The notes under the pieces: generated by a model
Told to the model about the DNA's origin: nothing
The model's input: only the letters and a program-made list of their open reading frames with translations
Database searches by the model: none
Made by a program: the position numbers and the translations under genes
Part shown: positions 1 to 36,220 of the stretch, in pieces
Layout: every line of letters begins with the position of its first letter
Position numbering within the stretch: position 1 is the first letter of the stretch
Assembly (NCBI GenBank): GCA_049671165.1
Contig: JBATUN010000023.1
Location: 11,722-75,721, forward strand
Direction of reading: 5' to 3'
Length of the DNA: 64,000 nucleotides
From: Dehalococcoidia bacterium
GTDB lineage: Bacteria > Chloroflexota > Dehalococcoidia > GIF9 > AB-539-J10

Positions 1-1131
1 TTCGAGAAGATTGTCAAGTTGGACGATAGAGACAATTATGCCTGGCATAGAAAGGGAATTGAGCTTAACTCTCTGAAGAAATACAAAGAGGCCCTGGATT
101 GTTTTGATAGGGCTATAGTAATCAAACGCAATGACGAATACGGATGGAATCACAGAGGCGTGGCACTGCGGGAGCTCGGAAGATACGATGAGGCTCTCCG
201 TAGCTGTAATAAAGCCATTAGAATCAATAACAAGTACCCTTTTGCCTGGTATACCAAAGGTTCTATCCTCCAACACCTGGGAGACCTTGCGGGAGCCAAA
301 GATTGTTTCCAGAATGCTGTTAGGTTTGCCCCTGATAATGACTCATATAGAAAGCGATTAGCCGGCATCAACGAGATTGCCGGTAGATCAGGAATAGAGA
401 ATGAAACCAGCGCCCAACTGCACCATGATGGGATTGCTCTTAGTAAATTGGGTAAACATGAAGAAGCTCTGGCCCAGTTTAAGAAAGCTATCAAGTTAGA
501 TCCCGAGGATAATGTCGCCTGGCACCGTAAAGGAATAGAACTAAACGCCCTGGGAAAATACAATGAGGCAATAGAGTGTTTTGAAAGGGCTATCAGGATT
601 AATTCCAGAGATAAATTCGCCTGGAACCATCGGGCGCTTTCTCTATGCAGGTTGGGAAATTATGGAGATGCCATAACTTCCTGTAATGAAGCCATCAAGA
701 TAGATGATACCTATCCGTTTGCCTGGTGTAATAGGGCGGTCATATCAGCTCATCTCGAGGACTTCGAGGATTTTCAGAAGTGTTTCCGCAGAGCCCGTCA
801 ACTCGACCCCAAAGGGTTGAATAACCGGTTTCTTGCTGAACACCTGCCAAAGATTGGGTATGAGGATTTGCTCAGCCGGAGTAAGGGCGATGTCAAGCGT
901 TCCAGCTATTACTGTTGCGAGCTCTGCCTGGTGCATCTACAGATAGAAGAAATGCCCCAGGCGTTGAAATATGCGTTGGACTTAGGCAAGTATGCCAACG
1001 AGAAGGTAAAAGCAGTGCTGAAGCCGCTTATCGAAGAACTTGAGTTCCGCATCGACGGGGGCATAGGTGTTACGGAGGACTTGATAGAACGGGCTGATGT
1101 AATACTGCACCAGGTCAAGATGGGATGGTAA
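1..1131 (+). CDS. TPR-repeat protein, 5' partial (reading frame is open to the window edge). Carries a conserved ~75-aa C-terminal domain that is also found at the C-terminus of the TPR-kinase at 13549
   Basis: Repeated 34-aa TPR units (W..KG..L..L.RY.EAL..F..AI.I.P). The C-terminus 'YYCCELCLVHLQ...ALKYALDL...EDLIERADVILHQVKMGW' is nearly identical in pattern to the C-terminus of ORF 13549..15915. Confidence 0.8.
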   Translation, partial: FEKIVKLDDRDNYAWHRKGIELNSLKKYKEALDCFDRAIVIKRNDEYGWNHRGVALRELGRYDEALRSCNKAIRINNKYPFAWYTKGSILQHLGDLAGAKDCFQNAVRFAPDNDSYRKRLAGINEIAGRSGIENETSAQLHHDGIALSKLGKHEEALAQFKKAIKLDPEDNVAWHRKGIELNALGKYNEAIECFERAIRINSRDKFAWNHRALSLCRLGNYGDAITSCNEAIKIDDTYPFAWCNRAVISAHLEDFEDFQKCFRRARQLDPKGLNNRFLAEHLPKIGYEDLLSRSKGDVKRSSYYCCELCLVHLQIEEMPQALKYALDLGKYANEKVKAVLKPLIEELEFRIDGGIGVTEDLIERADVILHQVKMGW

Positions 1132-1215: not shown

Positions 1216-1260
1216 AAACAGGAGATAATAGAAATGATAGATGAGGCGCTAAGGGAATAA
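1216..1260 (+). pseudogene. Decayed remnant of the conserved tail module (KQEIIEMIDEALRE*). It lies in the same frame as, and downstream of, the stop codon of the TPR gene
   Basis: The run aaacaggagataatagaaatgatagatgaggc is identical to the 3' end of genes at 7741-7812 and 10255-10329. No TM helix or start codon precedes it. Confidence 0.45.
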
Positions 1261-1261
1261 A

Positions 1262-1834
1262 ATGAAAAAGCAAGACAAGTGGCTGCTTTGGTTGACCCTA
1301 GTTACGCTCCCCTTTTTATTTAGCGGGGTTATCTTAAGCTTTGTAAACGCAAGCGATCGAATACCCACTGTCATAACTATCACACCTAGCTCATCTAGTG
1401 TCGAGTTCGGCAGCAGTATCACTTTGACTGCCACGCTAAGGAATTCTGAAGGCGATCCCCTGTCTGGGAAAACAATTGTGTGGCTTTTCACCACAACGGA
1501 GTATACCTTTGGCACTAATATCGGAAACCTAGAGCCAAGTCGAGGAGTCACGGACTCTTATGGACAAGCAACCACTACTTATACTCCTGCCATACAAGGT
1601 GAGCCATATGGAGTAACTATCCGAGCTAGCTTTGGTGATTTCATTGATTTTATTGCAATGGGAGATGATTTTCATGAGGGCTCATATGCCGTTTGCCATA
1701 TTAGCGTATCTAGAGCTCCAGGGACCGCTGGTGACATTCAGGATACTACAGGGGCACCATTATGGATTTGGGTAACGCTGACGATATTCCTCGTGGGCAG
1801 TGCTGGCATTGAGCGTCGTTTGGCAAGGAAATAA
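1262..1834 (+). CDS. Membrane-anchored protein with a bacterial Ig-like (Big-like) domain, an N-terminal signal/TM helix and a C-terminal TM helix with a short basic tail (ERRLARK)
   Basis: ATG directly follows the remnant stop codon. N-terminal hydrophobic helix. 'ITITPSSSSVEFGSSITLTATLRNSEGDPLSGKTIVW' resembles a Big-like fold. C-terminal 'LWIWVTLTIFLVGSAGI' is a TM helix. Confidence 0.6.
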   Translation: MKKQDKWLLWLTLVTLPFLFSGVILSFVNASDRIPTVITITPSSSSVEFGSSITLTATLRNSEGDPLSGKTIVWLFTTTEYTFGTNIGNLEPSRGVTDSYGQATTTYTPAIQGEPYGVTIRASFGDFIDFIAMGDDFHEGSYAVCHISVSRAPGTAGDIQDTTGAPLWIWVTLTIFLVGSAGIERRLARK

Positions 1835-1904
1835 ATAGGGCAGTGTAAAATTTGGTGACAATTCTACAATGGATTACTTGTAGCTAACGAATTAGAGGGG
1901 AATT

Positions 1905-2315
1905 ATGCCACTCGGTATTTTTGTTCTTGGGCTTGGATTCTTGATGGGAAGCGGGATATTTGGCGACACGATATCATTGGTCGCATTTATCCTTGGTTTC
2001 CTAGCAGTGTGTCTATTCTCCGCACTCAGACAGAGTCGTAAGTTGTCCCTTTTCTATGGAGTCAATTTCGGCATTGGTATGGTTATCGGCGTATTAGCCT
2101 TTATAGCTGAAGAAGGTTCTGCTGGCTCTGGGCTCGTCTTTGCTTGGATAGCACTGGGCACTATAGGTTCCATTGCTCTGGGAAATGGTGCTGTTTCACT
2201 AGGTTTAAAGAGGAGTTTGAAGAAGCAGCTTGCCAAAGAGCAATTCGAAGCAAAGAAAGCTGAGATAATTGCTATGATAGATGAGGCGTTGGAGGAGGAG
2301 AAGAGGACGCGATAA
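1905..2315 (+). CDS. Small polytopic membrane protein ending in the conserved cytoplasmic tail (KKAEIIAMIDEALEEEKRTR*)
   Basis: Three or four hydrophobic helices followed by a basic stretch and the tail motif. The 3' nucleotide sequence is shared with the other members of the family. Confidence 0.65.
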   Translation: MPLGIFVLGLGFLMGSGIFGDTISLVAFILGFLAVCLFSALRQSRKLSLFYGVNFGIGMVIGVLAFIAEEGSAGSGLVFAWIALGTIGSIALGNGAVSLGLKRSLKKQLAKEQFEAKKAEIIAMIDEALEEEKRTR

Positions 2316-2574
2316 ATAACGCCAAAGATACTTAGAATATGATGACAGATTTGAAGGAGTCATAGACTATGGGAGGATTTTGGATATATACTGCATCCCT
2401 ATAAGGTATCCTGATGCCCTGACCCCTGCTACCATTCCTTATGAGACTTATATCGAAAGGGATGCCTTTGATGCGGTAATTTTGCATGTACAATCGCGGC
2501 AATGGTCAAGGAAGGGCTAGAATAACCAATAAAGGGAAAACGTCTAGCTAGGGTACCATGAGCGAGGAAAGAAC

Positions 2575-2994
2575 ATGCGCAGAATTGGGGTGATATTGGG
2601 GATAGCTGTAGGCTTTGCTATAGGCTATTCAGCTAGCTTCTTGATATTTGCGGGGGGGCCGAAGGCTTGGGGGTTTTGGGGGCTATATCTTCCGATAGTG
2701 ATTGTAGCCACGGTTCTGACGGGCAGAAATACAAGGAGCCGGCTCGCCGTGGTGATCTCCTCGTGTGTCACACTGCTGTGCTTAGTGGTAGCCGGGGTAG
2801 GAGAACACGATTTGGGAACTTACATCTGGATATGCTTTGCAATACCTTTTGCCACGCTTGGAGCAACTAATGGATACTTTATGGGTCAGGCGAGACTCAC
2901 AATAAGGCAGCAGGAAATTAACCGCCTCGAAAAAGAGAAGGCAGAGATAATAGAAATGATAGACGAGGTGTTGGAGGAAGAAAAGAGGCGGTGA
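2575..2994 (+). CDS. Small polytopic membrane protein ending in the conserved cytoplasmic tail (EKEKAEIIEMIDEVLEEEKRR*)
   Basis: Hydrophobic helices followed by 'RLTIRQQEINRLEKEKAEIIEMIDEVLEEEKRR'. Confidence 0.65.
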   Translation: MRRIGVILGIAVGFAIGYSASFLIFAGGPKAWGFWGLYLPIVIVATVLTGRNTRSRLAVVISSCVTLLCLVVAGVGEHDLGTYIWICFAIPFATLGATNGYFMGQARLTIRQQEINRLEKEKAEIIEMIDEVLEEEKRR

Positions 2995-3134
2995 TATTCA
3001 ATGCCCAGTAATATTAAAACCAGATTTGAGCTTGCTAGAAATCGTGAAGATCATTCCATATTAGCTGGAGGGATTCAAGGGTCGAAGTTGTAAGTGTTGA
3101 GGTTGGAGACAGAACATTCGAGGGGGTCTTAAGA

Positions 3135-4862
3135 ATGAAGTGGACAGAAATGGCACTCAGGCTCCTTAGAATAGCACTCATGATTGCCATAATTGGAGTA
3201 GTCCTTTTTTGTGGTGACTATCTCTCCCGTAGCCAGGTCTTGGCAGAATCACCCGCACAGATGGAATGGTCTCAGACATTTGGTGGAGAAGATTCAGAGC
3301 ATGCCGACTCTGTGCAGCAGACCGACGACGGTGGCTATATAGTCGCTGGTACAATCGAATCATATGGCGCCAACCAAGGTGACGCTTGGCTGATAAAGAC
3401 AGATGCGGGCGGGAATGAACAGTGGTCCCGGACATTTGGCGAAAGCTATTATGTCGCAGCCACATTTGTGGAGCAAACCAGCGATGGTGGCTATATTATT
3501 GCCAGTGAGATCGAATCATATGAATCGGGATCATATAGCAGTGACGTCTGGTTGATAAAGACCAATGCGGAAGGAGATGAACAATGGTCCCAGACCATTG
3601 GTGGGACAGACGATGAGGGGGCCCACTCTGTACAGCAAACCAGCGATGGCGGTTATATTATCGCTGGTGACACTTACTCCTATGGTGCCGGCGAGAGTAA
3701 TAATCTCTTGCTGGTAAAGACCGATGCGGGCGGACATGAACAGTGGTCCCGGATCTGGGCTGGAAGCAAATCGGATGTAGCCTGGTGCGTGCAGCAGACC
3801 AGTGACGGCGGTTATATTGTCGCGGGTGAGACGATGTCTTACGGTGTCGGCGATGGTGATTTCTGGCTGATAAAGACGGATGCGGGAGGAAATGAACAGT
3901 GGTCCCGGACATTTGGTGGAAGCGATGATGACGGCGCAAGATCTGTGCAGCAAACCAGTGACGGCGGCTATGTTATCGCTGGTGAAACTTCCTCCTATGG
4001 TGCCGGCGGTGTTGACGCTTGGCTGATAAAGACGGATGCGGGAGGAAATGAACAGTGGTCCCGGACGTTTGGTGTAACAGACAATGAGTGGGCCTACTCT
4101 GTGCAGCAAACCAGCGATGGCGGCTATATTATCGCTGGTCAGACTTACTCATATAGTACGAAGGATACGGATATCTGGTTGATAAAGACCGATGCGGGAG
4201 GAGACGAACAATGGTCCCTGACCTTTGGTGGAGCGGACACTGAGTGTGCCCATTCTGTGCAGCAAACCACTGACGGCGGCTATATTATGGCTGGTAACAC
4301 TGCGTCATATGGTGCTGGCGATGGTGACTTCTGGCTCATAAAGATAGCGATTCCGCCTCCCCCCGACATACCGACCCTCATTTCACCGCCCGACAAGGAC
4401 AGGATAGGACTCATAGGCGGGATTACGCCAACATTTCAGTGGTCTGATGTATCCGACGATAGCGGAGTTCGGTACAACCTGCAGGTAGCGACCCACAAGG
4501 ATGTTACCTCCACCGGAGAATTCGTTGATCCCATGCTTTCGGTTGTGGGTCTGGTCGGAACAAGCTATACCCTGGAAGAGACAGAAGCACTGCCGTATGG
4601 TACCTATTACTGGATTGTACAGGCCGTAGACGAAGCAGAGAATGAAAGTGACTGGACCGCGCCCAGTTCGTTCCAAGTTGGGCTATTGCCCCTATGGGGA
4701 CTCGTTGCCATTATCGTAGTCCTGGCGATGCTGTTGATCCTCTTAACTCGTGCCCTAGTAATGAGAGCGAGATCAAGAGCAACACGACTGATAGAGAGGG
4801 AGAAAAAAGAGATAATAGAAATGATAGATGAGGCGTTGGAGGAAGATAAGAGGTCGCGATGA
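3135..4862 (+). CDS. Type-I-like membrane protein with an N-terminal signal anchor, about eight tandem ~47-aa beta-propeller-like repeats, an FN3-like domain, a TM helix and the conserved tail
   Basis: Repeat unit 'SVQQTSDGGYIIAG.T.SYGAG..DAWLIKTDAGGNEQWSRTFGG'. The 'PPPPDIPTLISP...YYWIVQAVDEAENESDWTAPSSFQV' region resembles FN3. C-terminal TM helix 'LWGLVAIIVVLAMLLILL' followed by 'EREKKEIIEMIDEALEEDKRSR*'. Confidence 0.8.
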   Translation: MKWTEMALRLLRIALMIAIIGVVLFCGDYLSRSQVLAESPAQMEWSQTFGGEDSEHADSVQQTDDGGYIVAGTIESYGANQGDAWLIKTDAGGNEQWSRTFGESYYVAATFVEQTSDGGYIIASEIESYESGSYSSDVWLIKTNAEGDEQWSQTIGGTDDEGAHSVQQTSDGGYIIAGDTYSYGAGESNNLLLVKTDAGGHEQWSRIWAGSKSDVAWCVQQTSDGGYIVAGETMSYGVGDGDFWLIKTDAGGNEQWSRTFGGSDDDGARSVQQTSDGGYVIAGETSSYGAGGVDAWLIKTDAGGNEQWSRTFGVTDNEWAYSVQQTSDGGYIIAGQTYSYSTKDTDIWLIKTDAGGDEQWSLTFGGADTECAHSVQQTTDGGYIMAGNTASYGAGDGDFWLIKIAIPPPPDIPTLISPPDKDRIGLIGGITPTFQWSDVSDDSGVRYNLQVATHKDVTSTGEFVDPMLSVVGLVGTSYTLEETEALPYGTYYWIVQAVDEAENESDWTAPSSFQVGLLPLWGLVAIIVVLAMLLILLTRALVMRARSRATRLIEREKKEIIEMIDEALEEDKRSR

Positions 4863-4938
4863 ACAATGCCGACCTCCCCAACTCCTGAGGATAGTCAACT
4901 AAGATCAGACAACCGCACATGGATAATCGGATCTAGAC

Positions 4939-7812
4939 ATGAAGAATAGACAGGTGCCCTTACTATCTCTGCTCTGTATCACACTCGCGTGCAGGCTGAT
5001 GCTTCCTGCTGTGTTAGCGGGAGCTTCAGCAGTCATGTCTCTGCCGGATGCCCGTATTGGTAGTCATGCAATTGAGGAAGCAGAACACGCCTCCATGATT
5101 GCGGCAGGTAAGCAGCACATTGTAGGACTTAGCGACAAAGGCACGGTCGTCGCCGTGGGATTGAACGCCCAAGGTCAGTGCAACGTGGATGGCTGGACGG
5201 ATATCACTCAGATTGCTGCAGGTGAGAGTCACACGGTGGGGTGTAAGTCTGATGGCACCGCGGTCGCCGTGGGAGGTAACTCGGATGGAGAGTGCAACGT
5301 GGATGGCTGGACGGATATCATTCAGGTCGCTGCGGGGCAGTATTGGCACACAGTCGGGCTTAAATCCGATGGTACCGTGGTTGCCGTGGGATGGAACGAC
5401 CATGGGGAGTGTGATGTTGGCGGCTGGAAGGGCATCACCAGAGTCGCCGCAGGTGCATATCATACGGTGGGGCTCAAGAATGATGGCAGGGTGGTCGCCG
5501 TAGGAGATAACTCATACGGGCGGTGTGATGTTGGCGGCTGGAAGGGCATCACCAGAGTCGCCGCAGGTGCATATCATACGGTGGGGCTCAAGAATGATGG
5601 CAAGGTGGTCGCCGTAGGAGATAACTCATACGGGCAGTGTGATGTTGGCAGCTGGACGAACATGGTTCAGGTCGCCGCAGGCGTCTGTCACACAGTGGGG
5701 CTTAGGGACGATGGCACCGTCGTCGCTGTGGGATGCAATACCCTCGGGCGATGCGATGTCTACGGCTGGACGGACATGATCCATGTCACGGCAGGCACGT
5801 CTACCACAGTAGGACTCCGGGCCAACGGAACTGTGATTGCTGCAGGACAGGTGTACGGTGGACAGTGCGACGTTAACAGCTTGACTGACATGACCCAGAT
5901 CGCTGCAGGTTACTATCATACCGTGGGAATAAAGACTGACGGCACTGTAGTCGCAGCAGGATACAGTGCCATAGGACGGTGCAATGTCGGCGGTTGGACG
6001 AACATCATCCAGATCGCCGCAGGCGATTTTCACACGGTAGGGGCCAAGTCCGACGGCACCGTGGTTGCCGTGGGGTACGGCGCCAGTGGGCGGTGCGATG
6101 TCGGAAACTGGACAGATATCGTGCAAGTCAGTGCGGGTGAGGCTCACACCGTGGGGCTTAGGGCCGATGGCACCGTCCTCGCTGTGGGATACAGTGGTGA
6201 TGGGCGGTGTGATGTGAGCGACTGGGCGGATATCACTCAGGTCGCGGCAGGCTGGTGTCATACAGTGGGCGTTAAATCCAACGGTACTGTGGTAGCTGTG
6301 GGAACAAACAGTCATGGACAGTGCGATGTCACCGGCTGGACCAATATCATGCAGATCGCTGCAGGCGCCTGGCATACAGTAGGGCTGAAAACAGATGGTA
6401 CCCTAGTCGCGGTGGGATGCAACGACCAAGGGCAGTGTGATATTTCCAGTTGGACGGATATCATCCAGATCTCCGCGGGCCGCGATCACACGGTGGGGGT
6501 TGAATTTGACGGTACTGTGGTCGCCGCGGGAGACAACGCCGGCGGGCAATGCAATATCGGCGACTGGACGAATATTGTCCAAGTCGCAGCGGGTCAATTA
6601 CACACGGTTGGGCTTAGGGCCGATGGCACCGTCTTTGCTGCAGGCCCAGAAATTGAGCTAGCCAAATGGGATCTAATAGAGCCTGTTGGGAATGATGATG
6701 TCAATGAAGTGAGCCCTACAACGTCCCTTTACCTGGTTTACCAGGCTGACCTTAGCGGTGTTGAGCCTAGTAACGAAACCGAGCTGATGCTTACGACAAA
6801 AGAAGTGATCGAACGGCGCGTTAATGCCTTCGGGATAACAGATGCAACTATTGCAGTACAGGAACAGCTAGGAGAATGGAGCATTGCTATACAGCTACCG
6901 GGCATTGTTGAGATTGACAGGGTCAAGGAGCTACTGGTGTGTTTCGCCTTGCTTGAGTTCAAGGAGCAAGATGAAGAAGGAAATTGGATTCCTGCCACAG
7001 GTATAGTGAGCGGCAAGCAACTGGTGCTTAGCAGTAGGTATTTTGAGGAAAACACCTCTATTAGTGTGGACCAATATGGGAAACCGCTACTAGTATTTGA
7101 GTGGGATGAGATGGGAGGGGAGCTTTCGAAACAAATAACAACCCGCCTTCTCGGCAAACCATTGGCGATCTTCCTTGGCGATGAGCCGCTCCGTGGTGAA
7201 GATGGCCATGTCATCGCCCCGGTAGTCCAGGCGGTCATAGAAGATGGGGCACAAATTGAAGGATTAAGCCTTGCCGATGCCACTGAATTACGAGACTTGC
7301 TGAATGCCGGGAAGATTCCTGTTCCATTAGGTAGGTGGGTGGAGGAAGGCCAATCCAGGTTGTTTGAGTCTGATGTGCCTCTATATGAAGGGCAGGTGAC
7401 CCCCGCGACTTTAGTAATCAATGTTGCCCCGAGTGATAGTGGCATGGTCACCTTATCACCCTCTCAGCCTGCCGAAGGATATGTCGCCGGGACAGAAGTC
7501 ACACTGACCGCTGTTGCTAGCGAGGGATATAAATTTAGCCACTGGAGTGGCGCCACCTCAGGGTCGCAAAGCCCCACTACAATAACCATAGACTCGGATA
7601 AGGAGGTAAGTGCCAGCTTCATAGTCGAGGGACAAGCTTTTCCTCTGAATGTGATATACATCATAGGGGCAGCCTTTGGTGTAGTGGTGCTCGTTCTGGC
7701 AGTGTCAAAGGTACGGAGAAGGGCGCGTAGTACAAGAGAGCAGCTTGAGAAAGAAAAACAGGAGATAATAGAAATGATAGATGAGGCATTGGAAGAGGAG
7801 AAGAAGCGGTGA
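4939..7812 (+). CDS. Surface protein with a signal peptide, more than 25 RCC1-like repeats, a central domain, an InlB B-repeat (Listeria-Bacteroides repeat), a TM helix and the conserved tail
   Basis: Repeats 'HTVGLKSDGTVVAVG.N..GQCDV.GWTDI.Q.AAG' (RCC1/BLIP-II-like). 'EGYKFSHWSG' is the B-repeat signature. TM helix 'VIYIIGAAFGVVVLVLAV' followed by 'EKEKQEIIEMIDEALEEEKKR*'. Confidence 0.85.
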   Translation: MKNRQVPLLSLLCITLACRLMLPAVLAGASAVMSLPDARIGSHAIEEAEHASMIAAGKQHIVGLSDKGTVVAVGLNAQGQCNVDGWTDITQIAAGESHTVGCKSDGTAVAVGGNSDGECNVDGWTDIIQVAAGQYWHTVGLKSDGTVVAVGWNDHGECDVGGWKGITRVAAGAYHTVGLKNDGRVVAVGDNSYGRCDVGGWKGITRVAAGAYHTVGLKNDGKVVAVGDNSYGQCDVGSWTNMVQVAAGVCHTVGLRDDGTVVAVGCNTLGRCDVYGWTDMIHVTAGTSTTVGLRANGTVIAAGQVYGGQCDVNSLTDMTQIAAGYYHTVGIKTDGTVVAAGYSAIGRCNVGGWTNIIQIAAGDFHTVGAKSDGTVVAVGYGASGRCDVGNWTDIVQVSAGEAHTVGLRADGTVLAVGYSGDGRCDVSDWADITQVAAGWCHTVGVKSNGTVVAVGTNSHGQCDVTGWTNIMQIAAGAWHTVGLKTDGTLVAVGCNDQGQCDISSWTDIIQISAGRDHTVGVEFDGTVVAAGDNAGGQCNIGDWTNIVQVAAGQLHTVGLRADGTVFAAGPEIELAKWDLIEPVGNDDVNEVSPTTSLYLVYQADLSGVEPSNETELMLTTKEVIERRVNAFGITDATIAVQEQLGEWSIAIQLPGIVEIDRVKELLVCFALLEFKEQDEEGNWIPATGIVSGKQLVLSSRYFEENTSISVDQYGKPLLVFEWDEMGGELSKQITTRLLGKPLAIFLGDEPLRGEDGHVIAPVVQAVIEDGAQIEGLSLADATELRDLLNAGKIPVPLGRWVEEGQSRLFESDVPLYEGQVTPATLVINVAPSDSGMVTLSPSQPAEGYVAGTEVTLTAVASEGYKFSHWSGATSGSQSPTTITIDSDKEVSASFIVEGQAFPLNVIYIIGAAFGVVVLVLAVSKVRRRARSTREQLEKEKQEIIEMIDEALEEEKKR

Positions 7813-7818
7813 TATTGA

Positions 7819-8268
7819 ATGGCGAGAAATACTACAAACAGGTCTGAATCGACTGGAAATCCAGGGGCTGATTTTGTGCTAGTTGGAAGGGTTCGACGGT
7901 TGGAAAGGATCGTATCACGCCACCTGAACGAAATACAGGCCGTCCTGGCTCTGATGCTGGTTATTTCAGCGCTCGTTCTTCCTCTACCACAGCCGGCAGT
8001 GGCCCAATCGCTTGATACATCAGCCTCGTGGCCGATGTTCCGCCAGAACTCGCGGCACACCGGCCTGAGCCCTTATGATACGGGTGACAATCCGGGTACC
8101 CAGAAGTGGACCTTCACCACGGGACACTATGTAGATTCTTCTCCGGCGATAGGCAGTGACGGCGCGATACATGTGCGTTCTAGATATGTGTTATCCCTAG
8201 AGTTATCGGCAGCTAACCGAGGCAACATTGGTGAGCGATCAGGGGTACGTTCAGGTGAGCAGAAATAA
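7819..8268 (+). pseudogene. Truncated N-terminal fragment of a PQQ-like beta-propeller repeat protein (signal peptide plus the first blade only)
   Basis: 'ALMLVISALVLPLPQPAVAQS' followed by 'WPMFRQNSRHTGLSPY...GTQKWTFTTGHYVDSSPAIGSDGAIHV' is a typical start of PQQ-repeat proteins. Similarity ends after one blade and the ORF terminates. Confidence 0.35.
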
Positions 8269-8310
8269 GACATCTGCATTCAATCATATTTCCTCCCTGT
8301 CAGAGGTGAG

Positions 8311-10329
8311 GTGGCAATGAAGACTGCTTTCCAATCGTGGAAAGGGATATCTGTTGCGGTCTTAGTTTTGTTTATCCTGCCCCTTGCTTCACTTCTGTTG
8401 TCGATACCTGCCCGTGCTAGTGAAAATGTTTGGCGTGAGCTTGACACTGGAATTGACTTTGAAATCTCACCTGAATCATATGGCCTTCACGACATCTGGG
8501 CCAATTCTGCTTCGGATATTTTCGCTGTCGGTGACAATGGTGTAATCGTGCACTACGATGGTAGTAGCTGGCACAAGATGAACAGCGGAGTCACATCAAG
8601 CCTCTCTTCTGTATGGGGTAGTTCATCGTCCGATGTCTTCGTGACGACCGGCGGCACAATACTGCATTATGATGGCAGTACGTGGAGCGAAATGGCCACT
8701 GGAGGGTATGGCGCCGGAGATGTATGGGGCAGTTCAGCCAGTGACGTCTATGCAGTGGGTGGTAAGCGTATCCTCCACTACGACGGAGGCAGTTGGACAG
8801 AGATAGTTGGCACAGGTTCTTCACACTCCCGGTACGGTGTTTGGGCAAGTTCATCATCGGACGTATTTGTTATAGGTTCGGGAGGTAGAGTCGAACATTA
8901 TGATGGGAGCACATGGACCCTCATGGATAATCTCGATTCTGCTTTTCTTTTGACTATATGGGGAAGTTCATCATCTGATGTCTTTGCAGGTGGTGACAAG
9001 CGAGCAGTCTTTCACTACGACGGTAGCACATGGAGAAGGATGAGCCTTCCCCATAGCACTCACAATGATCAGATCGTGTCTTTTTGGGGAAGCTCTCCTT
9101 CTAATATATTCGCTGTCTCCAACACTAATGCCATATACCGCTACGATGGCAGCGCATGGACCGAAATGAATAGATGGCTTCTTACATGGAATCTTTGGGG
9201 TATAGGGGGTAGTTCCGCCAATGACGTCTATGCAGTGGGTTATCCCTGTCATCCGGAGAGGAGCCCTATTCTACACTACCCCGAGCCAGAGTGGCTCGGC
9301 GACGCAGTGGACAATGTAGCACTTACGTGGAGCACCGGGGGCAGTGCCAAATGGATCGCACAAACGTGCCGCAGTTATTACGACGGTGACGCTGTTCAAA
9401 GTGGTTACATCACCCATAACCAAGCCACCTGGATAAGAACCACGGTCACCGGACCGGGGACTTTGAGCTTCTACTGGATGGTCCGTTCTCAAGATGAGTA
9501 TGACTGCCTAGAGTTCCATATCGATGGACTGGAACAAGTAAGCATCTCGGGTTCTCCTCAGTGGGAGCAAGAAACGCACTCTATCGCCTCAGGCACTCAT
9601 ATTGTGGAATGGAGATATACTAAGGATGGCTCGCAAGACAGTGACATGGACCGCGCCTGGCTTGATAAAGTGGAATTCACGTCAACACCAACCTATGCTC
9701 TTTCGGTGTACGAAAGCCCGAGTGGAAGCGGTACTGTGACCCCCTCTCCCTCCCAACCTTCAGGCGGATATACGGCTGCTACGGAGGTAACACTGACTGC
9801 AGAAGCTAACGAAGGCTATGAGTTTGACCACTGGAGCGGGACCAGCAATAACAACATAAACCCAACGACTGTTACCATGAATTCCGACAAGAGTGTCACG
9901 GCCTACTTTGAAGAGATACCACCAGACCAACATACCCTTAGCGTGAGCGTTAGTGGTCAAGGGACAACCAATCCCAGCGTGGGGAGTCACGGTTATGATG
10001 AAGGGACAGAAGTCACTGTGACTGCCTATTCTGCTTCTGGGTGGGAATTCGACCACTGGAGTGGCGCACTGTCTGGTTCTCAAAACCCCACTACAATGAC
10101 CATGGACTCGGACAAACAGGTAAGTGCCACCTTCATTGCTGAGGGACAAGCTTTCCCACTATATCTTATATATATCATCGGTGCAGCCTTTGGGGTACTG
10201 GTACTCATTCTGGCAATTAGAAAGGTACGGAAAAAGGCGCTTAGTCCAATGGAGCAGCTTGAGAAGGAGAAACAGGAGATAATAGAGATGATAGATGAGG
10301 CGTTGGAGGAGGAGAAGCGGAGGCGATAG
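8311..10329 (+). CDS. Surface protein with a signal peptide, tandem 'YDGSxW...WGSSSSDVF' beta-propeller repeats, a jelly-roll-like middle region, two InlB B-repeats, a TM helix and the conserved tail
   Basis: About ten ~45-aa repeats. 'GYEFDHWSG' and 'GWEFDHWSG' are B-repeat signatures. TM helix 'LYLIYIIGAAFGVLVLILAI' followed by 'EKEKQEIIEMIDEALEEEKRRR*'. Confidence 0.8.
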   Translation: MAMKTAFQSWKGISVAVLVLFILPLASLLLSIPARASENVWRELDTGIDFEISPESYGLHDIWANSASDIFAVGDNGVIVHYDGSSWHKMNSGVTSSLSSVWGSSSSDVFVTTGGTILHYDGSTWSEMATGGYGAGDVWGSSASDVYAVGGKRILHYDGGSWTEIVGTGSSHSRYGVWASSSSDVFVIGSGGRVEHYDGSTWTLMDNLDSAFLLTIWGSSSSDVFAGGDKRAVFHYDGSTWRRMSLPHSTHNDQIVSFWGSSPSNIFAVSNTNAIYRYDGSAWTEMNRWLLTWNLWGIGGSSANDVYAVGYPCHPERSPILHYPEPEWLGDAVDNVALTWSTGGSAKWIAQTCRSYYDGDAVQSGYITHNQATWIRTTVTGPGTLSFYWMVRSQDEYDCLEFHIDGLEQVSISGSPQWEQETHSIASGTHIVEWRYTKDGSQDSDMDRAWLDKVEFTSTPTYALSVYESPSGSGTVTPSPSQPSGGYTAATEVTLTAEANEGYEFDHWSGTSNNNINPTTVTMNSDKSVTAYFEEIPPDQHTLSVSVSGQGTTNPSVGSHGYDEGTEVTVTAYSASGWEFDHWSGALSGSQNPTTMTMDSDKQVSATFIAEGQAFPLYLIYIIGAAFGVLVLILAIRKVRKKALSPMEQLEKEKQEIIEMIDEALEEEKRRR

Positions 10330-10419
10330 ACAATGCCGCAGACATCACTGCTATAATAGTCACAACAGATGAAGCCCTCGTAGAGATCAGACCTTGAACA
10401 AAAGAAGAGGTGATAGACA

Positions 10420-12612
10420 ATGACAGATGATAAGGAAAGTGGCCAGAACCTAAAAAAGGAGGTTGTGGAGGCTGTCTCGCTCTTACGGCAGAAGCATGAT
10501 GGTGCCGACATAAATGAAGCGACAGAGTTCCTCCGCAAGGCAAAAGAGGCTATCGTTAAGAACGACTTCACTCAGGCATTGACCCTAGTCGGGAAGGCAC
10601 AGCTTGCTGCTCGACCGACGACAGAGTATCTTTTGGGCAGGGCCAAGAACCTGGAGGATACCGGAAGTCAGGCATACAAAAAAGGAAACTTCGCAAATGC
10701 CATAGAGTTGTGGCAGAGGTCTCTCAAAGAATATGGTCAAGCACAGAAGCAAGCTAAGAGCAGAGGCGAAAAGGAGATAGTTGAAGCCGTGAAGTCAACC
10801 GTTGACAGCATCAAGGCAGATATAAAGAGTGCTGAGACTGAGAAAGGCAATAGAGACATGCTGGCACTGGTCGAACAGGCAAACAAAGCCGTAGACGAGG
10901 CGAATGACAAGTTTGAAGCCAAGGAATTCGATACTGCCAAGGAAAGCTTTGAATCAGCCCGTGAGTTATATGCTAAAGCTGCTGCCGTCGCCGAGCAACT
11001 TGGCTCGGAAGATAAAGCCAGGTTGAGACAGATAGACGTGGATATGGCCACAAGCGTAGAAGCTTGTTTTCTTGGCAAGGGGGAGGTGCTTATCGAGCAA
11101 GCTTCTAAGGAAAAGGGCGAAAAGAAAGAGGCTGCCTTCTCAGACGTGATAGGGTATCTTGAATCATTCTCCTCTGACAGCCAAAGTTGTGAAGAACTCA
11201 GGGCGAAGGCTTACCAGGGTATGGCGCTGGGAAGAATAGAAGAGGGAATGGCGCTTATGGAGCAGGCTGAAGGATTGCTAGGACAGGGAGAACACTACAA
11301 GGCGAAGGAGGCATATCGCAAAGCCCAGGAGCACCTGGAAAGCCTGCGCGATTTTGCCGTGGAGCATAAGTTGGAAAGGGAAAAGGGGGAGGTTGATAAC
11401 CTGATAGATGATTGCGCAGCGAACGTAAAGGCATGCACCGATTCTATGCTGGGGGGGAGAGAAGGCGTGGCAGAGGGTGCAATCAGGAAAGTGGGAGATT
11501 TGAGGAAAGGCAAGAGGCCGCGCTTGAGACGCGAAGCTTTTAGTGATGAGAGAATGGAGAAGATCAAGACCGAGTATGAGCTTGTCAGATACCTGGGAGG
11601 GGGAGGCTTCGGTGATGTCTATCTGGCGAAGAACAGAGAAGGAGTCACTGTGGCCATAAAAGTTCCTAAAGACCTTGACAAGCACGGTGAGGAGACGTTC
11701 TTTCGTGAACTTGCGATATGGGGAAAACTTAGTCATAGGAATATAGTCAAGTTGTTACGGCCCAGGTTAACGCCCATACCTCTTTTTGAGATGGAGTATA
11801 TTGAAGGTGGAGACCTGGGGAGGTTATTGCGGGACACCAGAGCACTTTCATCCGAGAGGGCCTGTCGGATAGCCTTCGATATCGCCAGAGGGCTTCAATA
11901 TGCCCATGCCTCGCATAATGTCATTCACACTGACCTGAAACCAAGGAATATTCTGCTTACAAGCTTGGAAGAGGCCAAGATAAGCGACTGGGGCCTGGGG
12001 AAAGTCGCCACGAGCTCCAGCAGCGTTAAGGGCTATACCGAGTCCTATGCCGCCCCGGAGCAGATTGCTAGGGGGAAAGCCGAAGAGAAAACAGACACAT
12101 ACCAGCTGGGGGTGTTGTTCTATGAAATGATCGCGGGTCGTAATCCATTCGCTGGTGGTTCGGTGTATGAAGTCCGGGAGAAGGTATTGAACTTCATCCC
12201 CGAGAAACCCAGCACGTGCGCTAAAAACCCTGCAATCGAGCCCCTGGACGATATGGTGACAAGCTGCCTGCAAAAGGACTCTCAAGATAGACCGGCAATC
12301 AAGCAATTCAGGGAGGTGATATACAGATATATGAGGGAGGCCCATGGTGTCTCGCTCCATCTGACTAAGGCAGTCGGTTCTCAGACGAATCTCCTGTGTC
12401 GCATGGCCCTGCTTGAAGCCAAAGAGAGCAACTATGCGGGGCTGCTGCCGTGTCTAGAGCAATTAAAAACATTGGTGCACGATAAGCAAAGAAAGCGAAA
12501 CGTGCAGAACCTGATAGACGTTATGGCCATTCGGAAAAAGCAAGAGATGGAGATTGGGGAGGAAGCCATAGACGAGCTCAATGCTTTGGTGAGGTGGGCA
12601 GAATATGGCTGA
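10420..12612 (+). CDS. Hanks-type Ser/Thr protein kinase with a long N-terminal coiled-coil region and a C-terminal helical domain. The catalytic loop reads HTD rather than HRD, and the magnesium-binding motif is DWG rather than DFG
   Basis: 'LGGGGFGDVY...VAIKV' (Gly-loop and VAIK), 'HTDLKPRNILL', 'ISDWGLGK' and 'APEQ'. Confidence 0.85.
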   Translation: MTDDKESGQNLKKEVVEAVSLLRQKHDGADINEATEFLRKAKEAIVKNDFTQALTLVGKAQLAARPTTEYLLGRAKNLEDTGSQAYKKGNFANAIELWQRSLKEYGQAQKQAKSRGEKEIVEAVKSTVDSIKADIKSAETEKGNRDMLALVEQANKAVDEANDKFEAKEFDTAKESFESARELYAKAAAVAEQLGSEDKARLRQIDVDMATSVEACFLGKGEVLIEQASKEKGEKKEAAFSDVIGYLESFSSDSQSCEELRAKAYQGMALGRIEEGMALMEQAEGLLGQGEHYKAKEAYRKAQEHLESLRDFAVEHKLEREKGEVDNLIDDCAANVKACTDSMLGGREGVAEGAIRKVGDLRKGKRPRLRREAFSDERMEKIKTEYELVRYLGGGGFGDVYLAKNREGVTVAIKVPKDLDKHGEETFFRELAIWGKLSHRNIVKLLRPRLTPIPLFEMEYIEGGDLGRLLRDTRALSSERACRIAFDIARGLQYAHASHNVIHTDLKPRNILLTSLEEAKISDWGLGKVATSSSSVKGYTESYAAPEQIARGKAEEKTDTYQLGVLFYEMIAGRNPFAGGSVYEVREKVLNFIPEKPSTCAKNPAIEPLDDMVTSCLQKDSQDRPAIKQFREVIYRYMREAHGVSLHLTKAVGSQTNLLCRMALLEAKESNYAGLLPCLEQLKTLVHDKQRKRNVQNLIDVMAIRKKQEMEIGEEAIDELNALVRWAEYG

Positions 12613-13336
12613 TCTTGATATAGCCTGCGTTACTGATACTGGGGGCAGGGGTGGAAATGAAGATAGATTGGTGGCCAAAAGCCTCGGGGCAGTACATTTG
12701 CTTGCAGTTGCTGATGGTTTGGGAGGGCATGCGGCCGGTGAAGTTGCCAGTAGTGTAGCTTTGACAGAGCTGGAAGGATATCTCAGGGCAAACGTAGTCG
12801 GGGAAGATATTCTGCACGCGGTGAAAGAAGCCGTGTCAAAAGCAAACAAAGAGATTCACCTACTATCTGAGGAGAACCCTGGCTATGCTGGCATGGGCAC
12901 AACTCTGGTCATGGGGCTGGTTCAGGCGGACAAGGTTCTGGTAGCTAATGTGGGGGACAGCCGACTATATCATATTTCGGAGAATGCGATGAACCAGATA
13001 ACCAGAGATCACTCCGTAGTCCAGGAACTCGTGGAGCAAGGATTGATTACAGCGCAAGACGCCTTATGTCATCCTGAGAAGAGTGTCCTGACAAGGGTGC
13101 TGGGCTTGGAGCCAGAGGTAGAAGCAGATACCTATGATATTGAGTTTTTGCCCGACGATCTTTTGCTTCTCTGTTCCGATGGGTTGACGGACTCCCTAAG
13201 GGATGAAGAGATTCGGGGAATCATCGTCTCTTCAGGTAACCTGGATGAGGCTTGCGCCAGGCTCATAAGCCTGGCCAGAGAAAAAGGTGGCACGGACAAT
13301 ATCAGCGTAGTTCTGGCAAGGAGGAAACGGGAGTAA
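12605..13336 (+). CDS. PP2C-family Ser/Thr protein phosphatase (Stp1-like)
   Basis: 'LLAVADGLGGHAAGEVAS', 'LVANVGDSRLY' and 'GGTDNISVVL'. Its start overlaps the kinase stop by 8 nt, which suggests translational coupling. Confidence 0.9.
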   Translation: MADLDIACVTDTGGRGGNEDRLVAKSLGAVHLLAVADGLGGHAAGEVASSVALTELEGYLRANVVGEDILHAVKEAVSKANKEIHLLSEENPGYAGMGTTLVMGLVQADKVLVANVGDSRLYHISENAMNQITRDHSVVQELVEQGLITAQDALCHPEKSVLTRVLGLEPEVEADTYDIEFLPDDLLLLCSDGLTDSLRDEEIRGIIVSSGNLDEACARLISLAREKGGTDNISVVLARRKRE

Positions 13337-13548: not shown

Positions 13549-15915
13549 ATGGGAAAGAATGATGATCAGAAGGGGCTTTACGAAGAAACCGTGAGCGCCT
13601 GCACCAAGGCGACAAACAGAGACCCAAACGATGCTATCTCCTGGCTACTCAAGGCCTTTGCCCTTTTTGAACTCGCAAGATACGAAGAATCCGTAGATGC
13701 CTGGAATGGAGCGATAGAAATAAACCCAGAAGATGCCAACCTCTGGCATTACAAAGGCCTTGCCCTTTTCAGACTTGAGAGATATGAGGAGGCACTAGAT
13801 GTCTATAATAGAGCGATGGAGATAGACCCAAAAGATGCCGTCCTCTGGCGTAACAAAGGCCTTGCCCTTCTCAGACTTGAGAGATATGAGGAGGCACTAG
13901 ATGTCTATAATAGAGCGATAGAGATAGACCCGAAAAATGCTGATGCTTGGCATAGCAAGGGGCTTGCCCTTTGTAAGCTTGAGAGATATCAAGAGGGTGT
14001 GGCTGCATACGATAAGGGGATAGAGATGAACCCGAAACACGCTGATGCGTGGCACGACAGGGGAATTGGGCTTGGCAGACTTGAAAGATACGAAGAAGCC
14101 CTGGATGCCTTCAACAGAGCGCTAAAGGTGAACCCAGAACATCCTACTGCTTGGTATAACAAGGGCCTTGCCCTTTATAGACTCGATAGATATGAGGAGG
14201 CCCTAGACGCCTACAACCGGATGATAGAGATAGACCCAGAAACTGCTGGTGCCTGGAATGCCAAGGGCCTTGCCTTTGAGAGGCTAAAGAGGTATGAAGA
14301 GGCCCTGGATGCCTACAACAGGGTGATAGAGATAGATCCAGAAGATGCCCTTGCTTGGCATAACAAGGGATTCTCTCTTCGCAAGCTTGAGAGATATGAA
14401 GAGGCGGTAGATGCCTACAGTAGAGCGATAGAGATAGACCCAGGGGATGCCGATACTTGGCATGGTAGGGGACTTGCCCTTGGTCATCTTGAGAGATATG
14501 AAGAGGCTGTGGATGACTACAATACCGCGATAAAGGTAAATCCAAAAGATGTTCTTGCATGGTATCGCAAGGGGTGTGCTCTGGAACATCTGGATAGGTA
14601 TGAGGACGCAATAAGGTGCTATCGAAAGACCATTGAGCTCGACCCGCATAATGAAAATGCGAAGGCGGCTTTGGCGTCACTTGAGCAGGGTCGGCAGAAG
14701 AAGGGGCAGGCGAAGGTCTTCGAAGCCGCTGGGGCCCACGAAGCTGATGAAGAGTCGGAAGGGGCTTTGATCTCCCTGGAACACACTCAACGAGGGAAGG
14801 AGCAGGCTGAGATTGCTCCCCATCGAGTACGTCCAAGTGTTTTCAGTTCTTCCTTTCCGGGAGAGCTGAATCAATATTATTCTGACGTCTCATTCATTGG
14901 CAGCGGTGGTTTCGCCCGTGTATTCCGTGCTAAGAGAAGAACTGATGGCACGGAAGTGGCCGTCAAAATCCCCCTGTTTGGAGATCCCAAAACGGGTAAA
15001 AGTTTCATCAGAGAGATAACTTCCTGGCAGGTTCTGGAGCACAGAAACATTGTCAAGCTCTACGACTTCAATGTCCTGCCTCTTCCGTACCTGGAGATGG
15101 AGCTATGTGATGGCAGCTTAGAAGACCTGCCGAAACCTGTCGGCGTTGAGGAAGCCACTCGCCTCGTATTTGATATCGCCAATGGTCTAAGTCATGCGCA
15201 TGCTAAACACATAATCCACCGGGACCTCAAGCCCGGTAATATTCTGACGCGTACTGGTATTCCCAAGATTTCCGACTGGGGACTAAGCAAGACAATTGCT
15301 ATGGGTAGGAGCTCAGGAACTCCTAGTTTCTCACCGATGTATGCCGCACCTGAACAGTTATCGCCGGATAGATTTGGCAAACCTGACTACAGAACGGACA
15401 TCTACCAACTGGGCGCTATCTTCTACGAGCTTGTTACGGGTGAACTGCCACACAAAGGAGACAGCATCACCGAGATTATGGCGCAGATTCTCATGGGGCA
15501 ACCGGAATTTCCGTCACAGCTGGACTTAGAAAAAAAGGGCATAAAACACATCATCATACGCTGTCTGGAGAAGAAGATGAGTCAGCGCTACCAGAGTGTT
15601 GACCAGCTACAAAGAGAGCTGGCTGAGTATCTCAAAGTAGAGTATGAAGAATCGCTCGGCAGGAGCCACGGAGATATGAGGCGTTCCGGACATTATTGCG
15701 CGGAACTCTGCCTGGTTCACCTTCAGGTCGGTAATACCTCTGAAGCGTTGAAATACGCGCTGGACTTAACCAACTATGCTAGTGGGCAAGCTAAGGTTCT
15801 CTTGACGCCGCTAATTGGAGAACTGGAGTTCCGCCGGAAAGAAGAACAAGCAGTTCCTGAAGACTTGATAGAGCGGGCAGGTGTGGTCTTGCACCAGGTG
15901 AAGATGGGGTGGTAA
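13549..15915 (+). CDS. TPR-repeat (about ten repeats) Ser/Thr protein kinase with a DWG motif. Its C-terminal ~75 aa are homologous to the C-terminus of the TPR protein at 1..1131
   Basis: TPR units in 13600-14640. 'GSGGFARVF...VAVKI', 'HRDLKPGNIL', 'ISDWGLSK' and 'APEQ'. C-terminus 'HYCAELCLVHLQ...ALKYALDL...EDLIERAGVVLHQVKMGW'. Confidence 0.9.
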   Translation: MGKNDDQKGLYEETVSACTKATNRDPNDAISWLLKAFALFELARYEESVDAWNGAIEINPEDANLWHYKGLALFRLERYEEALDVYNRAMEIDPKDAVLWRNKGLALLRLERYEEALDVYNRAIEIDPKNADAWHSKGLALCKLERYQEGVAAYDKGIEMNPKHADAWHDRGIGLGRLERYEEALDAFNRALKVNPEHPTAWYNKGLALYRLDRYEEALDAYNRMIEIDPETAGAWNAKGLAFERLKRYEEALDAYNRVIEIDPEDALAWHNKGFSLRKLERYEEAVDAYSRAIEIDPGDADTWHGRGLALGHLERYEEAVDDYNTAIKVNPKDVLAWYRKGCALEHLDRYEDAIRCYRKTIELDPHNENAKAALASLEQGRQKKGQAKVFEAAGAHEADEESEGALISLEHTQRGKEQAEIAPHRVRPSVFSSSFPGELNQYYSDVSFIGSGGFARVFRAKRRTDGTEVAVKIPLFGDPKTGKSFIREITSWQVLEHRNIVKLYDFNVLPLPYLEMELCDGSLEDLPKPVGVEEATRLVFDIANGLSHAHAKHIIHRDLKPGNILTRTGIPKISDWGLSKTIAMGRSSGTPSFSPMYAAPEQLSPDRFGKPDYRTDIYQLGAIFYELVTGELPHKGDSITEIMAQILMGQPEFPSQLDLEKKGIKHIIIRCLEKKMSQRYQSVDQLQRELAEYLKVEYEESLGRSHGDMRRSGHYCAELCLVHLQVGNTSEALKYALDLTNYASGQAKVLLTPLIGELEFRRKEEQAVPEDLIERAGVVLHQVKMGW

Positions 15916-17766: not shown

Positions 17767-17795
17767 TAGTGCACTCATGGACCAAGGCTAGAGTG

Positions 17796-35946: not shown

Positions 35947-36013
35947 TTTATGCCTCCTTCAGTGGTTAAGATTTGTCAATACGCTAGGGATCATCACGTG
36001 ATGGAGCTGCATT

Positions 36014-36220
36014 ATGAAAGAGGAGAATCTAATAATGACGGTTAAGGAAGCCGCGGCTGTCTTTAATAGCAGTAGGGGCCTGGCTTATCAGGCTGCTCGA
36101 GACGGCAGCATCCCCACGATTCGGATCGGTAGACGTCTGTTTGTCCCCCGCAGGGCTCTCGAGAAGCTCCTCGAAGCACCGATTTCCTCCGATATCAGAG
36201 AACCGGGTAAGCAGTCATAA
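36014..36220 (+). CDS. Excisionase-family HTH DNA-binding protein
   Basis: 'MTVKEAAAVFNSSRGLAYQAARDGSIPTIRIGRRLFVPRRALEKLL' is a typical Xis/MerR-like HTH. Confidence 0.55.
   Translation: MKEENLIMTVKEAAAVFNSSRGLAYQAARDGSIPTIRIGRRLFVPRRALEKLLEAPISSDIREPGKQS

Follow-up and report, generated by a model that had tools for sequence, protein, structure and literature searches.

A conserved C-terminal helix shared by unrelated membrane and surface proteins of Dehalococcoidia, encoded beside a rare kinase and an ESCRT-like gene cluster

In a stretch of 64,000 nucleotides from a Dehalococcoidia bacterium (GenBank assembly GCA_049671165.1, contig JBATUN010000023.1, positions 11,722 to 75,721; hereafter the window), five genes code for membrane or surface proteins that all end in nearly the same way: a hydrophobic segment is followed by Lys/Arg residues and then by a tail of the form E(K/R)EKxEII(E/A)MIDE(A/V)LEE(E/D)K(R/K). 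All five lie on the plus strand, as do all the neighboring features between positions 19 and 18698 described below. Our results indicate that this tail is a genuine, formerly unannotated and lineage-restricted conserved protein module that did not arise by local duplication. The explanation that we favor, with a probability of roughly 45%, is that it serves as a portable cytoplasmic docking helix, recruiting the Ser/Thr kinase encoded just downstream (10420-12612) to varied surface proteins.

The five open reading frames (ORFs; 1905-2315, 2575-2994, 3135-4862, 4939-7812 and 8311-10329) are real, with the starts given here, and their endings (FEAKKAEIIAMIDEALEEEKRTR, LEKEKAEIIEMIDEVLEEEKRR, IEREKKEIIEMIDEALEEDKRSR, LEKEKQEIIEMIDEALEEEKKR and LEKEKQEIIEMIDEALEEEKRRR; tail peptide EQLEKEKQEIIEMIDEALEEEKRRR) are near-identical, if not strictly identical as a preliminary description of this DNA had them. 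The domain calls made there were broadly right. Genes 1905 (136 amino acids, tail motif at 2235-2315) and 2575 (139 amino acids, tail motif at 2917-2994) encode small polytopic membrane proteins. Gene 3135 (575 amino acids) encodes a signal/anchor, a repeat propeller, an Ig-like domain, a membrane helix and the tail (4782-4862); gene 4939 (957 amino acids) RCC1 repeats, SecD-P1, an InlB B-repeat, a membrane helix and the tail (7735-7812); and gene 8311 (672 amino acids) propeller-like repeats, two B-repeats, a membrane helix and the tail (10249-10329). The 35-nt core of the tail occurs five times at three mismatches or fewer, versus no occurrence in 100 shuffles, and six-frame translation of the window revealed no copy beyond these five genes and one remnant. 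Whereas the five copies are 81% identical in nucleotides over a 60-nt core, only 35-39% identity is left upstream of it and 29% downstream. Recent duplication of whole genes, which the preliminary description had named as a refuting outcome, is thereby excluded; the ectodomains are unrelated to one another. No Pfam or NCBIfam family matched the tail region (E<=0.01) in the window proteins or in the family clusters described below, and weak matches to LapA_dom, DUF5058 and DUF2069 of Pfam and to GapR of NCBIfam, all far below cut-offs, were discarded. The product of gene 2575 is identical to MGB5925593.1, a "hypothetical protein" in a Dehalococcoidia metagenome-assembled genome at the National Center for Biotechnology Information (NCBI), and that of gene 8311 matches MGB5925597.1, also annotated as hypothetical. 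The tail had been predicted to be cytoplasmic and helical, and this is supported: the order of hydrophobic segment and then Lys/Arg places it on the cytoplasmic side by the positive-inside rule, and its conserved part is an acidic helix of about 17-20 residues with a hydrophobic face I-I-M-I-A-L and a hydrophobic moment of 0.5 over the core.

An alignment of the five window copies alone found no match in genome contigs, metagenome contigs or a word-indexed search of 5.8 billion proteins, the profile being too narrow and the filters too strict. The family was reached instead through the loci of a neighboring MIT-AAA ATPase, a degenerate DNA pattern run against metagenomes, and a full HMMER scan. 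The ATPase loci (each designated here by L and a number) held related tails in two Dehalococcoidia genomes, e.g., RIEKSKSEIVDMIEEAL and RIEKQKAEIVAMIEGAL; the degenerate pattern added L084, L096, L105, L110, L112/L115 and L120, and had no match in viral contigs. Some 20 further copies on nine related contigs were thus collected, and an alignment of 20 members consists of a membrane helix, a Lys/Arg cluster, a charged linker of 0-35 amino acids, the motif (R/Q)(I/L)ExxK(A)EI(I/V)xMI(D/E)(E/K)AL and 2-15 variable residues. The HMMER scan of 1.84 billion representative proteins returned 29 clusters at E<=1e-3, every one with a hydrophobic segment before the motif and with the motif at or near the C-terminus (family consensus KEQLEKEKAEIIAMIDEALE). 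Wherever the source is named it is Dehalococcoidia.

The carriers of the tail are highly varied and include PQQ and other propellers, PD40, RCC1, NosD/beta-helix, leucine-rich repeats and B-repeats as well as small polytopic proteins, many single-pass members having a juxtamembrane motif (D)FAPT(I/V)xNxYIY. Seven clusters are mini proteins of 53-73 amino acids that hold only the membrane helix and the tail, and at least two soluble TPR proteins (L120, L129) end in the tail with no visible membrane helix. Several copies per genome are found: five in the window and four to five both in L005 and on the L112/L115 contig. In three members (P0013, P0024 and P0028) an acidic coiled-coil extension of about 90 amino acids follows the tail. 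This extension (RARAVHQVAREEEGDDxDEEEKRFIxEDIEY), present also in the L129 protein 2955-3629, ends in KKRR and a stop codon just before a kinase start. Gene 1905 of the window is 79% identical to that L129 gene, which has the same tail plus the extension and a kinase 6 nt later, and looks like the same protein cut off right behind the tail. At L115 6191-8770 the tail motif stands near the N-terminus between two membrane helices and is followed by a PQQ propeller, as if a mini gene of membrane helix and tail had lost its stop codon and run on into the gene behind it.

Selection on the tail is at the protein level. Between window copies, the proportion of differing sites is about 0.10 at nonsynonymous positions (pN) and 0.64 at synonymous ones (pS), a ratio of about 0.15, and codon pairs for the same residue differ in 30% of cases, versus 57% expected from the codon usage of the window. 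We conclude from these values that the copies are old and have been kept by selection on the protein, which replaces the ongoing gene conversion proposed before; a high identity "even at synonymous positions" was an overstatement. Most tail codons are two-fold degenerate (Glu, Lys, Asp). The Leu codon TTG and the Ile codon ATA are fixed in all five window copies, and the Ala, Leu, Asp and Glu codons of the tail vary freely across genomes. Comparison of protein and nucleotide constraint, as had been suggested, thus spoke for the protein and left to the nucleotide side only the codon identity of the central core (GAG ATA ATA .. ATG ATA GAT GAG GCG TTG), which is residual shared descent.

The strongest clue to a partner is the gene that follows. 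The kinase 10420-12612 is soluble, with no membrane segment of its own, and consists of an N-terminal helical solenoid of 345 amino acids, a Pfam Pkinase domain and a C-terminal helical domain. Its N-domain is rare: a search of 5.8 billion proteins yielded just three homologues, each encoded 5-6 nt behind a tail gene. Tail genes lie directly upstream of this one kinase type in almost every informative locus: in L115, L084, L096 and L127 the tail stop overlaps the kinase start, L120 and L129 have 6 nt between the two genes and L128 has 9 nt, and in L124 it is a 60-amino-acid gene of membrane helix plus tail that directly precedes the kinase. A search with the Vps4-like ATPase brought in 80 loci, 34 of which also gave a match to Snf7, and among them the tail was found only in L004, which stops at a contig edge, and in L005, where the full N-domain kinase is present. 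In L003 the kinase lacks residues 1-275, no tail gene is found in 18 kb, and a fusion of ectodomain, membrane helix and kinase is encoded in the same cluster.

The two genes even share translation signals. In L120, L123, L124 and L129 the last codons of the tail, AAG AGG AGG (KRR), form the Shine-Dalgarno sequence AGGAGG of the kinase gene, and the ATG that lies 3-6 nt after the tail stop is the kinase start. A similarity reaching past the stop codons had been noted in the window, and it is real over 3-10 bases (ACAATGCC, TATTCAATGCC and similar). Because the kinase directly follows tail genes in those four loci, these bases are explained as a relic of the Shine-Dalgarno sequence, spacer and ATG of a downstream kinase gene. 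L120 reads ATG CCC GAT AGT AAT; after the stop of gene 2575 stands TAT TCA ATG CCC AGT AAT (2995-3012). The corresponding relics are a degraded start codon, ATA ACG, after gene 1905 (2316-2321), ACA ATG after gene 3135 (4863-4868) and ACA ATG CCG after gene 8311 (10330-10338); that of gene 4939 has its ATG at 7819, where it serves as the start of a truncated ORF (7819-8268). A degraded junction (KKR, stop, TGA TAG ACA; 10394-10419) directly upstream of the kinase ATG at 10420 is the working copy whose relics follow the five tails; the corresponding junction of L129 is AAGAAGAGGAGGTAATCAACAATG. The order in L129 is a TPR gene with tail, a Big_1 gene, the homologue of gene 1905 with tail, the kinase (74% identical in protein to that of the window) and a PP2C phosphatase, from which it follows that genes 2575, 3135, 4939, ORF 7819 and gene 8311 are insertions between gene 1905 and the kinase. 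All of these but ORF 7819 bear a tail, and each tail is followed by its junction relic, ORF 7819 starting at that of gene 4939. Taken together, the rare N-domain that always stands behind a tail gene and the shared translation signals link the tail to this kinase type.

An AlphaFold2 model of the kinase N-domain comprises 12 helices, with a predicted local distance difference test score of about 81-96 per 10-residue block over residues 11-330, and its structural (Foldseek) and Protein Data Bank (PDB) profile matches are TPR scaffolds (CTPR, LGN/Pins, OGT, Hop TPR2A/TPR1). It also carries an invariant basic/hydrophobic block, AQLAA(K/R)PTTEYLLGRAK, which would complement the acidic tail. Given the confidently modeled helical solenoid, the TPR scaffolds as best matches and this block, the N-domain is a plausible receptor for the peptide. 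An MIT-like identity was considered for it and set aside (hhalign probability 8%).

From this arrangement we infer a binding partner, a signaling direction and a connection with Snf7/Vps4, as follows. The module would consist of a membrane anchor, the Lys/Arg cluster and the acidic amphipathic helix of about 20 residues, and the helix would bind the TPR-like solenoid of the kinase 10420-12612, tethering a soluble kinase to the membrane and to exchangeable extracellular binding or sensor domains. The outcome would be split receptor kinases, and the kinase together with its PP2C partner may then act on the neighboring Snf7/MIT-AAA membrane-remodeling pair. An acidic helix with a broad hydrophobic face has the build of a ligand peptide for the groove of a helical repeat, and the existence of bare anchor-tail mini proteins and of soluble TPR-tail proteins argues for a recruiting peptide as opposed to a cargo tag or a membrane-sorting signal. 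If the tail is such a docking helix, bacterial receptor kinases would be modular, any surface domain or a 60-residue anchor being recruited via a 20-residue ending, and the four or five genes inserted at the tail-kinase junction of the window relative to L129 would display that recruitment.

Several observations weigh against kinase docking. The TPR-like assignment is a weak one, since Foldseek E-values are near 1e-3 with low TM-scores and the PDB profile E-values of 1e-8 to 1e-3 are driven by one repeat. In L005 (by 2 nt), L103, L112 and L126 it is the MIT-AAA ATPase or a paralogue of it that immediately precedes a tail gene, and since the entire cluster is dense, the kinase is not singled out by the order of the genes. 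One tail gene lies in an unrelated neighborhood (L125), and other helical receptors are encoded nearby, namely the TPRs of the second kinase, those of the first gene and the MIT domain. Two further leads failed to help. One helix within the kinase, LEREKGEVDNLIDD, resembles the tail on inspection, and although no other non-tail stretch of the window scored better, its E of 1 is not significant. At L126 9957-10663, an N-terminal domain (HKWHDI(K/R)YQ(D/E)(M/L)PDWVK) that otherwise occurs in proteins with a membrane helix and tail (L084 477-1142, L096 612-1256) is seemingly fused in frame to the kinase N-domain; this would-be Rosetta-stone fusion was not used, as it may be a frameshift, with a tail remnant in another frame of a contig of 4.6x coverage.

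An unlikely but serious alternative is that the tail docks on the ESCRT-like machinery itself, binding either Snf7 or, like an MIT-interacting motif (MIM), the MIT domain of the ATPase, and so marking its carriers as recruiters or cargo. A short C-terminal amphipathic acidic helix with hydrophobic residues at i, i+4 and i+7 has the format of helical MIMs, the N-terminus of the ATPase is MIT-like, and in addition to the tail genes that directly follow the ATPase or its paralogue, the slot after Vps4 is occupied by one of two kinds of protein, with the tail or with the second motif described below (window 17763, L001). Nevertheless, the Vps4-like ATPase loci other than L004 and L005 carry no tail, the conserved C-terminal helix of the local Snf7 (DRIxxGLxxIExEM) is a better fit to MIM1 and the natural MIT ligand, the tail lacks the Arg and the terminal basic position of MIM1, and bare helix-tail mini proteins and soluble TPR-tail proteins would make poor cargo. 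Still more doubtful, in our view, is a broader possibility, that the tail is an address label of a bacterial ESCRT system, of which the second motif would be an alternative label; here the Snf7/MIT-AAA pair would capture tail proteins, bare anchor peptides among them, either directly or via a tail-bound kinase. Such a label would imply vesicle budding, membrane-protein extraction or local remodeling, and would amount to a ubiquitin-independent ESCRT sorting signal in a bacterium.

It is improbable that the tails of different membrane proteins simply bundle with one another as short coiled coils, with no soluble receptor at all. Several copies per genome, the broad hydrophobic face and the coiled-coil extension of P0013, P0024 and P0028 would suit self-association, which is hard to square with a helix of only about 17 residues, so acidic that like charges would repel. 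It also leaves unexplained why tail genes almost obligately adjoin one kinase type and share translation signals with it, and why soluble TPR proteins have tails.

There is very little to be said any longer for a cause at the nucleotide level, whether gene conversion or a DNA/RNA element overlapping the 3' ends, with a functionless peptide, and we regard it as largely refuted. The deficit of codon differences, the fixed TTG and ATA codons and the similarity past the stop would favor it, as would a possible stem of 6-7 bp, GGCGUUG/CAAUGCC, between the Ala-Leu codons and the post-stop bases of window copies and of the close relative L120. This stem, which would hide the downstream AUG, lies at 2285-2321, 2967-3005 and 10299-10337 of the window and at about 338-385 of L120. 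It is not present in L122, L123, L124, L115 or L005, it shows no compensatory double changes, Rfam gives no match and there is no consistent terminator, for which reasons the RNA-element reading was dropped. Furthermore, synonymous differences are many, the peptide is kept across genomes with differing codons and in 29 protein clusters, and the bases past the stop are accounted for by the Shine-Dalgarno and ATG signals of the kinase junction. Finally, that the tail is a modified form of some known C-terminal signal for sorting or anchoring, processed by a sortase-like enzyme, is extremely improbable despite the tripartite look of juxtamembrane motif, membrane helix and Arg/Lys cluster, given that, as anticipated for LPXTG, PEP-CTERM, PGF-CTERM and GlyGly-CTERM, no sorting-domain profile of NCBIfam or Pfam matches, that such signals end a few basic residues after the helix whereas here 25-60 residues follow it and the conserved part lies 10-45 residues beyond it on the cytoplasmic side, that polytopic and soluble TPR proteins also bear the tail, which can moreover stand internally, ahead of a long extension, and that no sortase-like gene was seen among the called neighbors of eight loci, whole genomes not having been scanned.

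Upstream of the five tail genes lies a sixth, noncoding copy of the tail, KQEIIEMIDEALRE followed by a stop (1216-1260), which abuts the ATG of gene 1262 and explains why the feature first described was made to start at 1216. Its counterpart by position in L129 (1955-2377) and L120 is the tail at the end of the small TPR protein encoded upstream of Big_1. Gene 1262 itself (1262-1834) encodes a Big_1 surface protein with a C-terminal membrane helix and no tail, and has an orthologue in the same position of L129. The first gene of the window (19-1131) encodes a TPR protein with an N-terminal part homologous to the L115 protein of TPR, membrane helix and tail, and it looks chimeric: residues 1-279 match that protein (51%), the final 85 residues correspond to the helical domain at the C-terminus of the TPR-kinase (roughly 15633-15915, 71% identical in nucleotides), and the orphan tail remnant follows 85 nt after it, which suggests that recombination removed its membrane helix and stranded its tail. 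ORF 7819 (7819-8268, 149 amino acids), which codes for a cytoplasmic segment, a membrane helix and the initial blades of a PQQ-type propeller and then stops, is in frame with gene 8311 across that single stop codon (8266-8268) and is probably a gene cut short by the insertion of gene 8311. Farther away in the window, at 34805-36938 and 57231-58505, the ORF translations alone suggested, on visual inspection, integrase-like ORF fragments and an IS110-like transposase ORF.

After the tail genes, the window continues with the kinase, a PP2C phosphatase, a second kinase with TPRs, Snf7 and the MIT-AAA ATPase. The phosphatase (12605-13336; Pfam PP2C, 59 bits) overlaps the kinase end with its start and is conserved after the kinase in L005, L115, L120, L127, L128 and L129. 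The second Ser/Thr kinase (13549-15915) has about 10 canonical N-terminal TPRs and a C-terminal helical domain; in relatives the TPRs are replaced by an ectodomain plus membrane helix (L003) or by HEAT repeats (L126). The Snf7/ESCRT-III family protein (16055-16654, 199 amino acids) scores 29.0 bits against a Pfam cut-off of 27.3, has DDRISAGLRRIEEEMRKE as its C-terminal helix, and in L001-L005, where its identity is 72-79%, is in every case followed immediately by the ATPase. Its end overlaps by 4 nt the start of the MIT-AAA ATPase of Vps4/CdvC type (16651-17766), which aligns over its full length (residues 14-364) to the NCBIfam CdvC model at 234 bits, below the equivalog cut-off, and whose N-terminal profile matches PDB MIT domains of chitin synthase (7e-6), calpain-7 (3e-3) and, more weakly, Vps4 (0.1-0.2).

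This cluster recurs in relatives in the order second Snf7-like gene, second AAA gene, Snf7, Vps4-like gene, tail genes, kinase and PP2C. In L003 27-9230, L005 3-2677, L112 1-2598 and L128 5024-7367, the second Snf7-like gene and the second AAA ATPase (with a helical N-terminus) are accompanied by an upstream protein that ends in RYIKDVGLVLE and is possibly a winged-helix protein. None of these extra genes has a tblastn match in the 64-kb window except the ATPase, which matches the window's own MIT-AAA gene, and the upstream protein of L005 (3-653), a candidate counterpart of the arCOG09748 (winged helix) and arCOG08177 proteins of archaeal ESCRT loci, has neither a tblastn match in the window nor a Pfam match. 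Besides Chloroflexota and one Methanoperedens (L025, ATPase 52% identical), the 80 loci, with ATPase identities of 47-80%, come from many Planctomycetota/Phycisphaerae, among them Fontivita pretiosa with its complete genome; Snf7 adjoins the ATPase in at least 34 of the loci. Snf7 directly before a Vps4/CdvC-like MIT-AAA ATPase is thus widespread in bacterial genomes. According to a 2025 review, a Vps4-like ATPase appears to be absent in bacteria (PMC7619361), and an earlier genomics paper noted only that the ATPase had been transferred to bacteria, with displacement of snf7 (PMC11237479); in the present bacterial cluster, in contrast to those transfers, Snf7 is retained. We found no paper that describes the tail or this bacterial cluster. 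The tail offers a synthesizable handle, one peptide and three or four candidate domains, on a Snf7 and MIT-AAA system with kinase and phosphatase that spans Chloroflexota and Planctomycetota, and its binding partner would reveal an input to, or a client of, a bacterial ESCRT-like machine, although the reach of the tail is limited, the family being rare and so far confined to uncultured Dehalococcoidia.

Directly after the ATPase, two paralogous small membrane proteins (17763-18248 and 18261-18698) have cytoplasmic N-termini with a second motif, KLxQWEAEGYDVSEFKQKWF, whose general form is (K/E)LxQW(E/K)xEGYDVSE(F/L)xxKWF (see also QWEAEGYDVSEFKQKWF). In relatives this motif is itself a C-terminal tail after a membrane helix (L001 6044-7537, L129 3-302), it occurs further at L001 1-1398 and L023 12427-12909, and in L129 a gene that carries it stands directly before the other kinase type. 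The proteins L112 2735-4735 and L001 6044-7537 have a common ectodomain end and membrane helix, followed by the first motif in the former and the second in the latter, so the two tails look interchangeable.

In gene content, the window resembles the archaeal "Main clade" ESCRT loci, which, according to Makarova et al. (2024, PMC10936438), comprise Vps4, ESCRT-III, a Ser/Thr kinase and a phosphatase. MIT-AAA, Snf7, a Ser/Thr kinase with a small C-terminal helical domain and PP2C are common to both, and the kinase and phosphatase components are indeed present here, with Pkinase on two proteins and one PP2C. The part of the paper considered for the non-Asgard archaeal ESCRT loci describes no shared tail motif, and the archaeal kinases are presented there as membrane-anchored themselves (PMC10936438), a difference from the present locus, which is also bacterial.

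With MIM1 and other helical MIMs the tail shares a short C-terminal amphipathic acidic helix, a setting with MIT-AAA ATPase and Snf7, and, if our proposal is right, a recruiting role. The MIM1 consensus, (D/E)xxLxxRLxxL(K/R), is matched by I7, I11 and A14, but Met stands at the Arg position and Leu at the terminal basic one. Besides, the tail is found on membrane and TPR proteins that lack the Snf7 fold (neither the five window tail proteins nor the 29 clusters of the family gave a match), its occurrence goes with a kinase type and not with the ATPase, and the local Snf7 has a MIM-like end of its own. A second parallel is provided by the EEVD ligands of TPR clamps (Hsp70/Hsp90 with Hop, PP5 and CHIP), which are likewise acidic C-terminal peptides on differing proteins with a TPR-type reader, as is proposed for the tail, and the profile of the kinase N-domain matches Hop TPR2A and TPR1. 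However, an EEVD-COOH end is not what the tail shows, since its extreme C-termini vary (KRR/KRRR, KGK, GEDKK, NEGRR) and some tails are internal, and a helix of about 17 residues whose binding is only predicted differs from an extended pentapeptide.

In Sulfolobus, the C-terminal peptide of CdvA docks on the winged helix of CdvB and recruits ESCRT-III/Vps4. The tail, in its proposed role, would similarly be a short C-terminal peptide on a membrane-associated protein in a prokaryotic ESCRT-III/Vps4 setting, but no CdvA homologue is found at the window, the local Snf7 shows no winged-helix extension and the sequences are unrelated. Cytokine receptors, which have no kinase domain, bind JAK via Box1/Box2. 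If the tail recruits the kinase, the likeness to these receptors would lie in a variable ectodomain, a single-pass helix, a short cytoplasmic motif and a noncovalently bound kinase; there is no sequence or evolutionary relationship, and for the bacterial case the argument comes from gene linkage alone. Although its sequence falls outside the definitions of both MIM1 and EEVD, the tail appears, in its format, to belong with these short C-terminal docking motifs.

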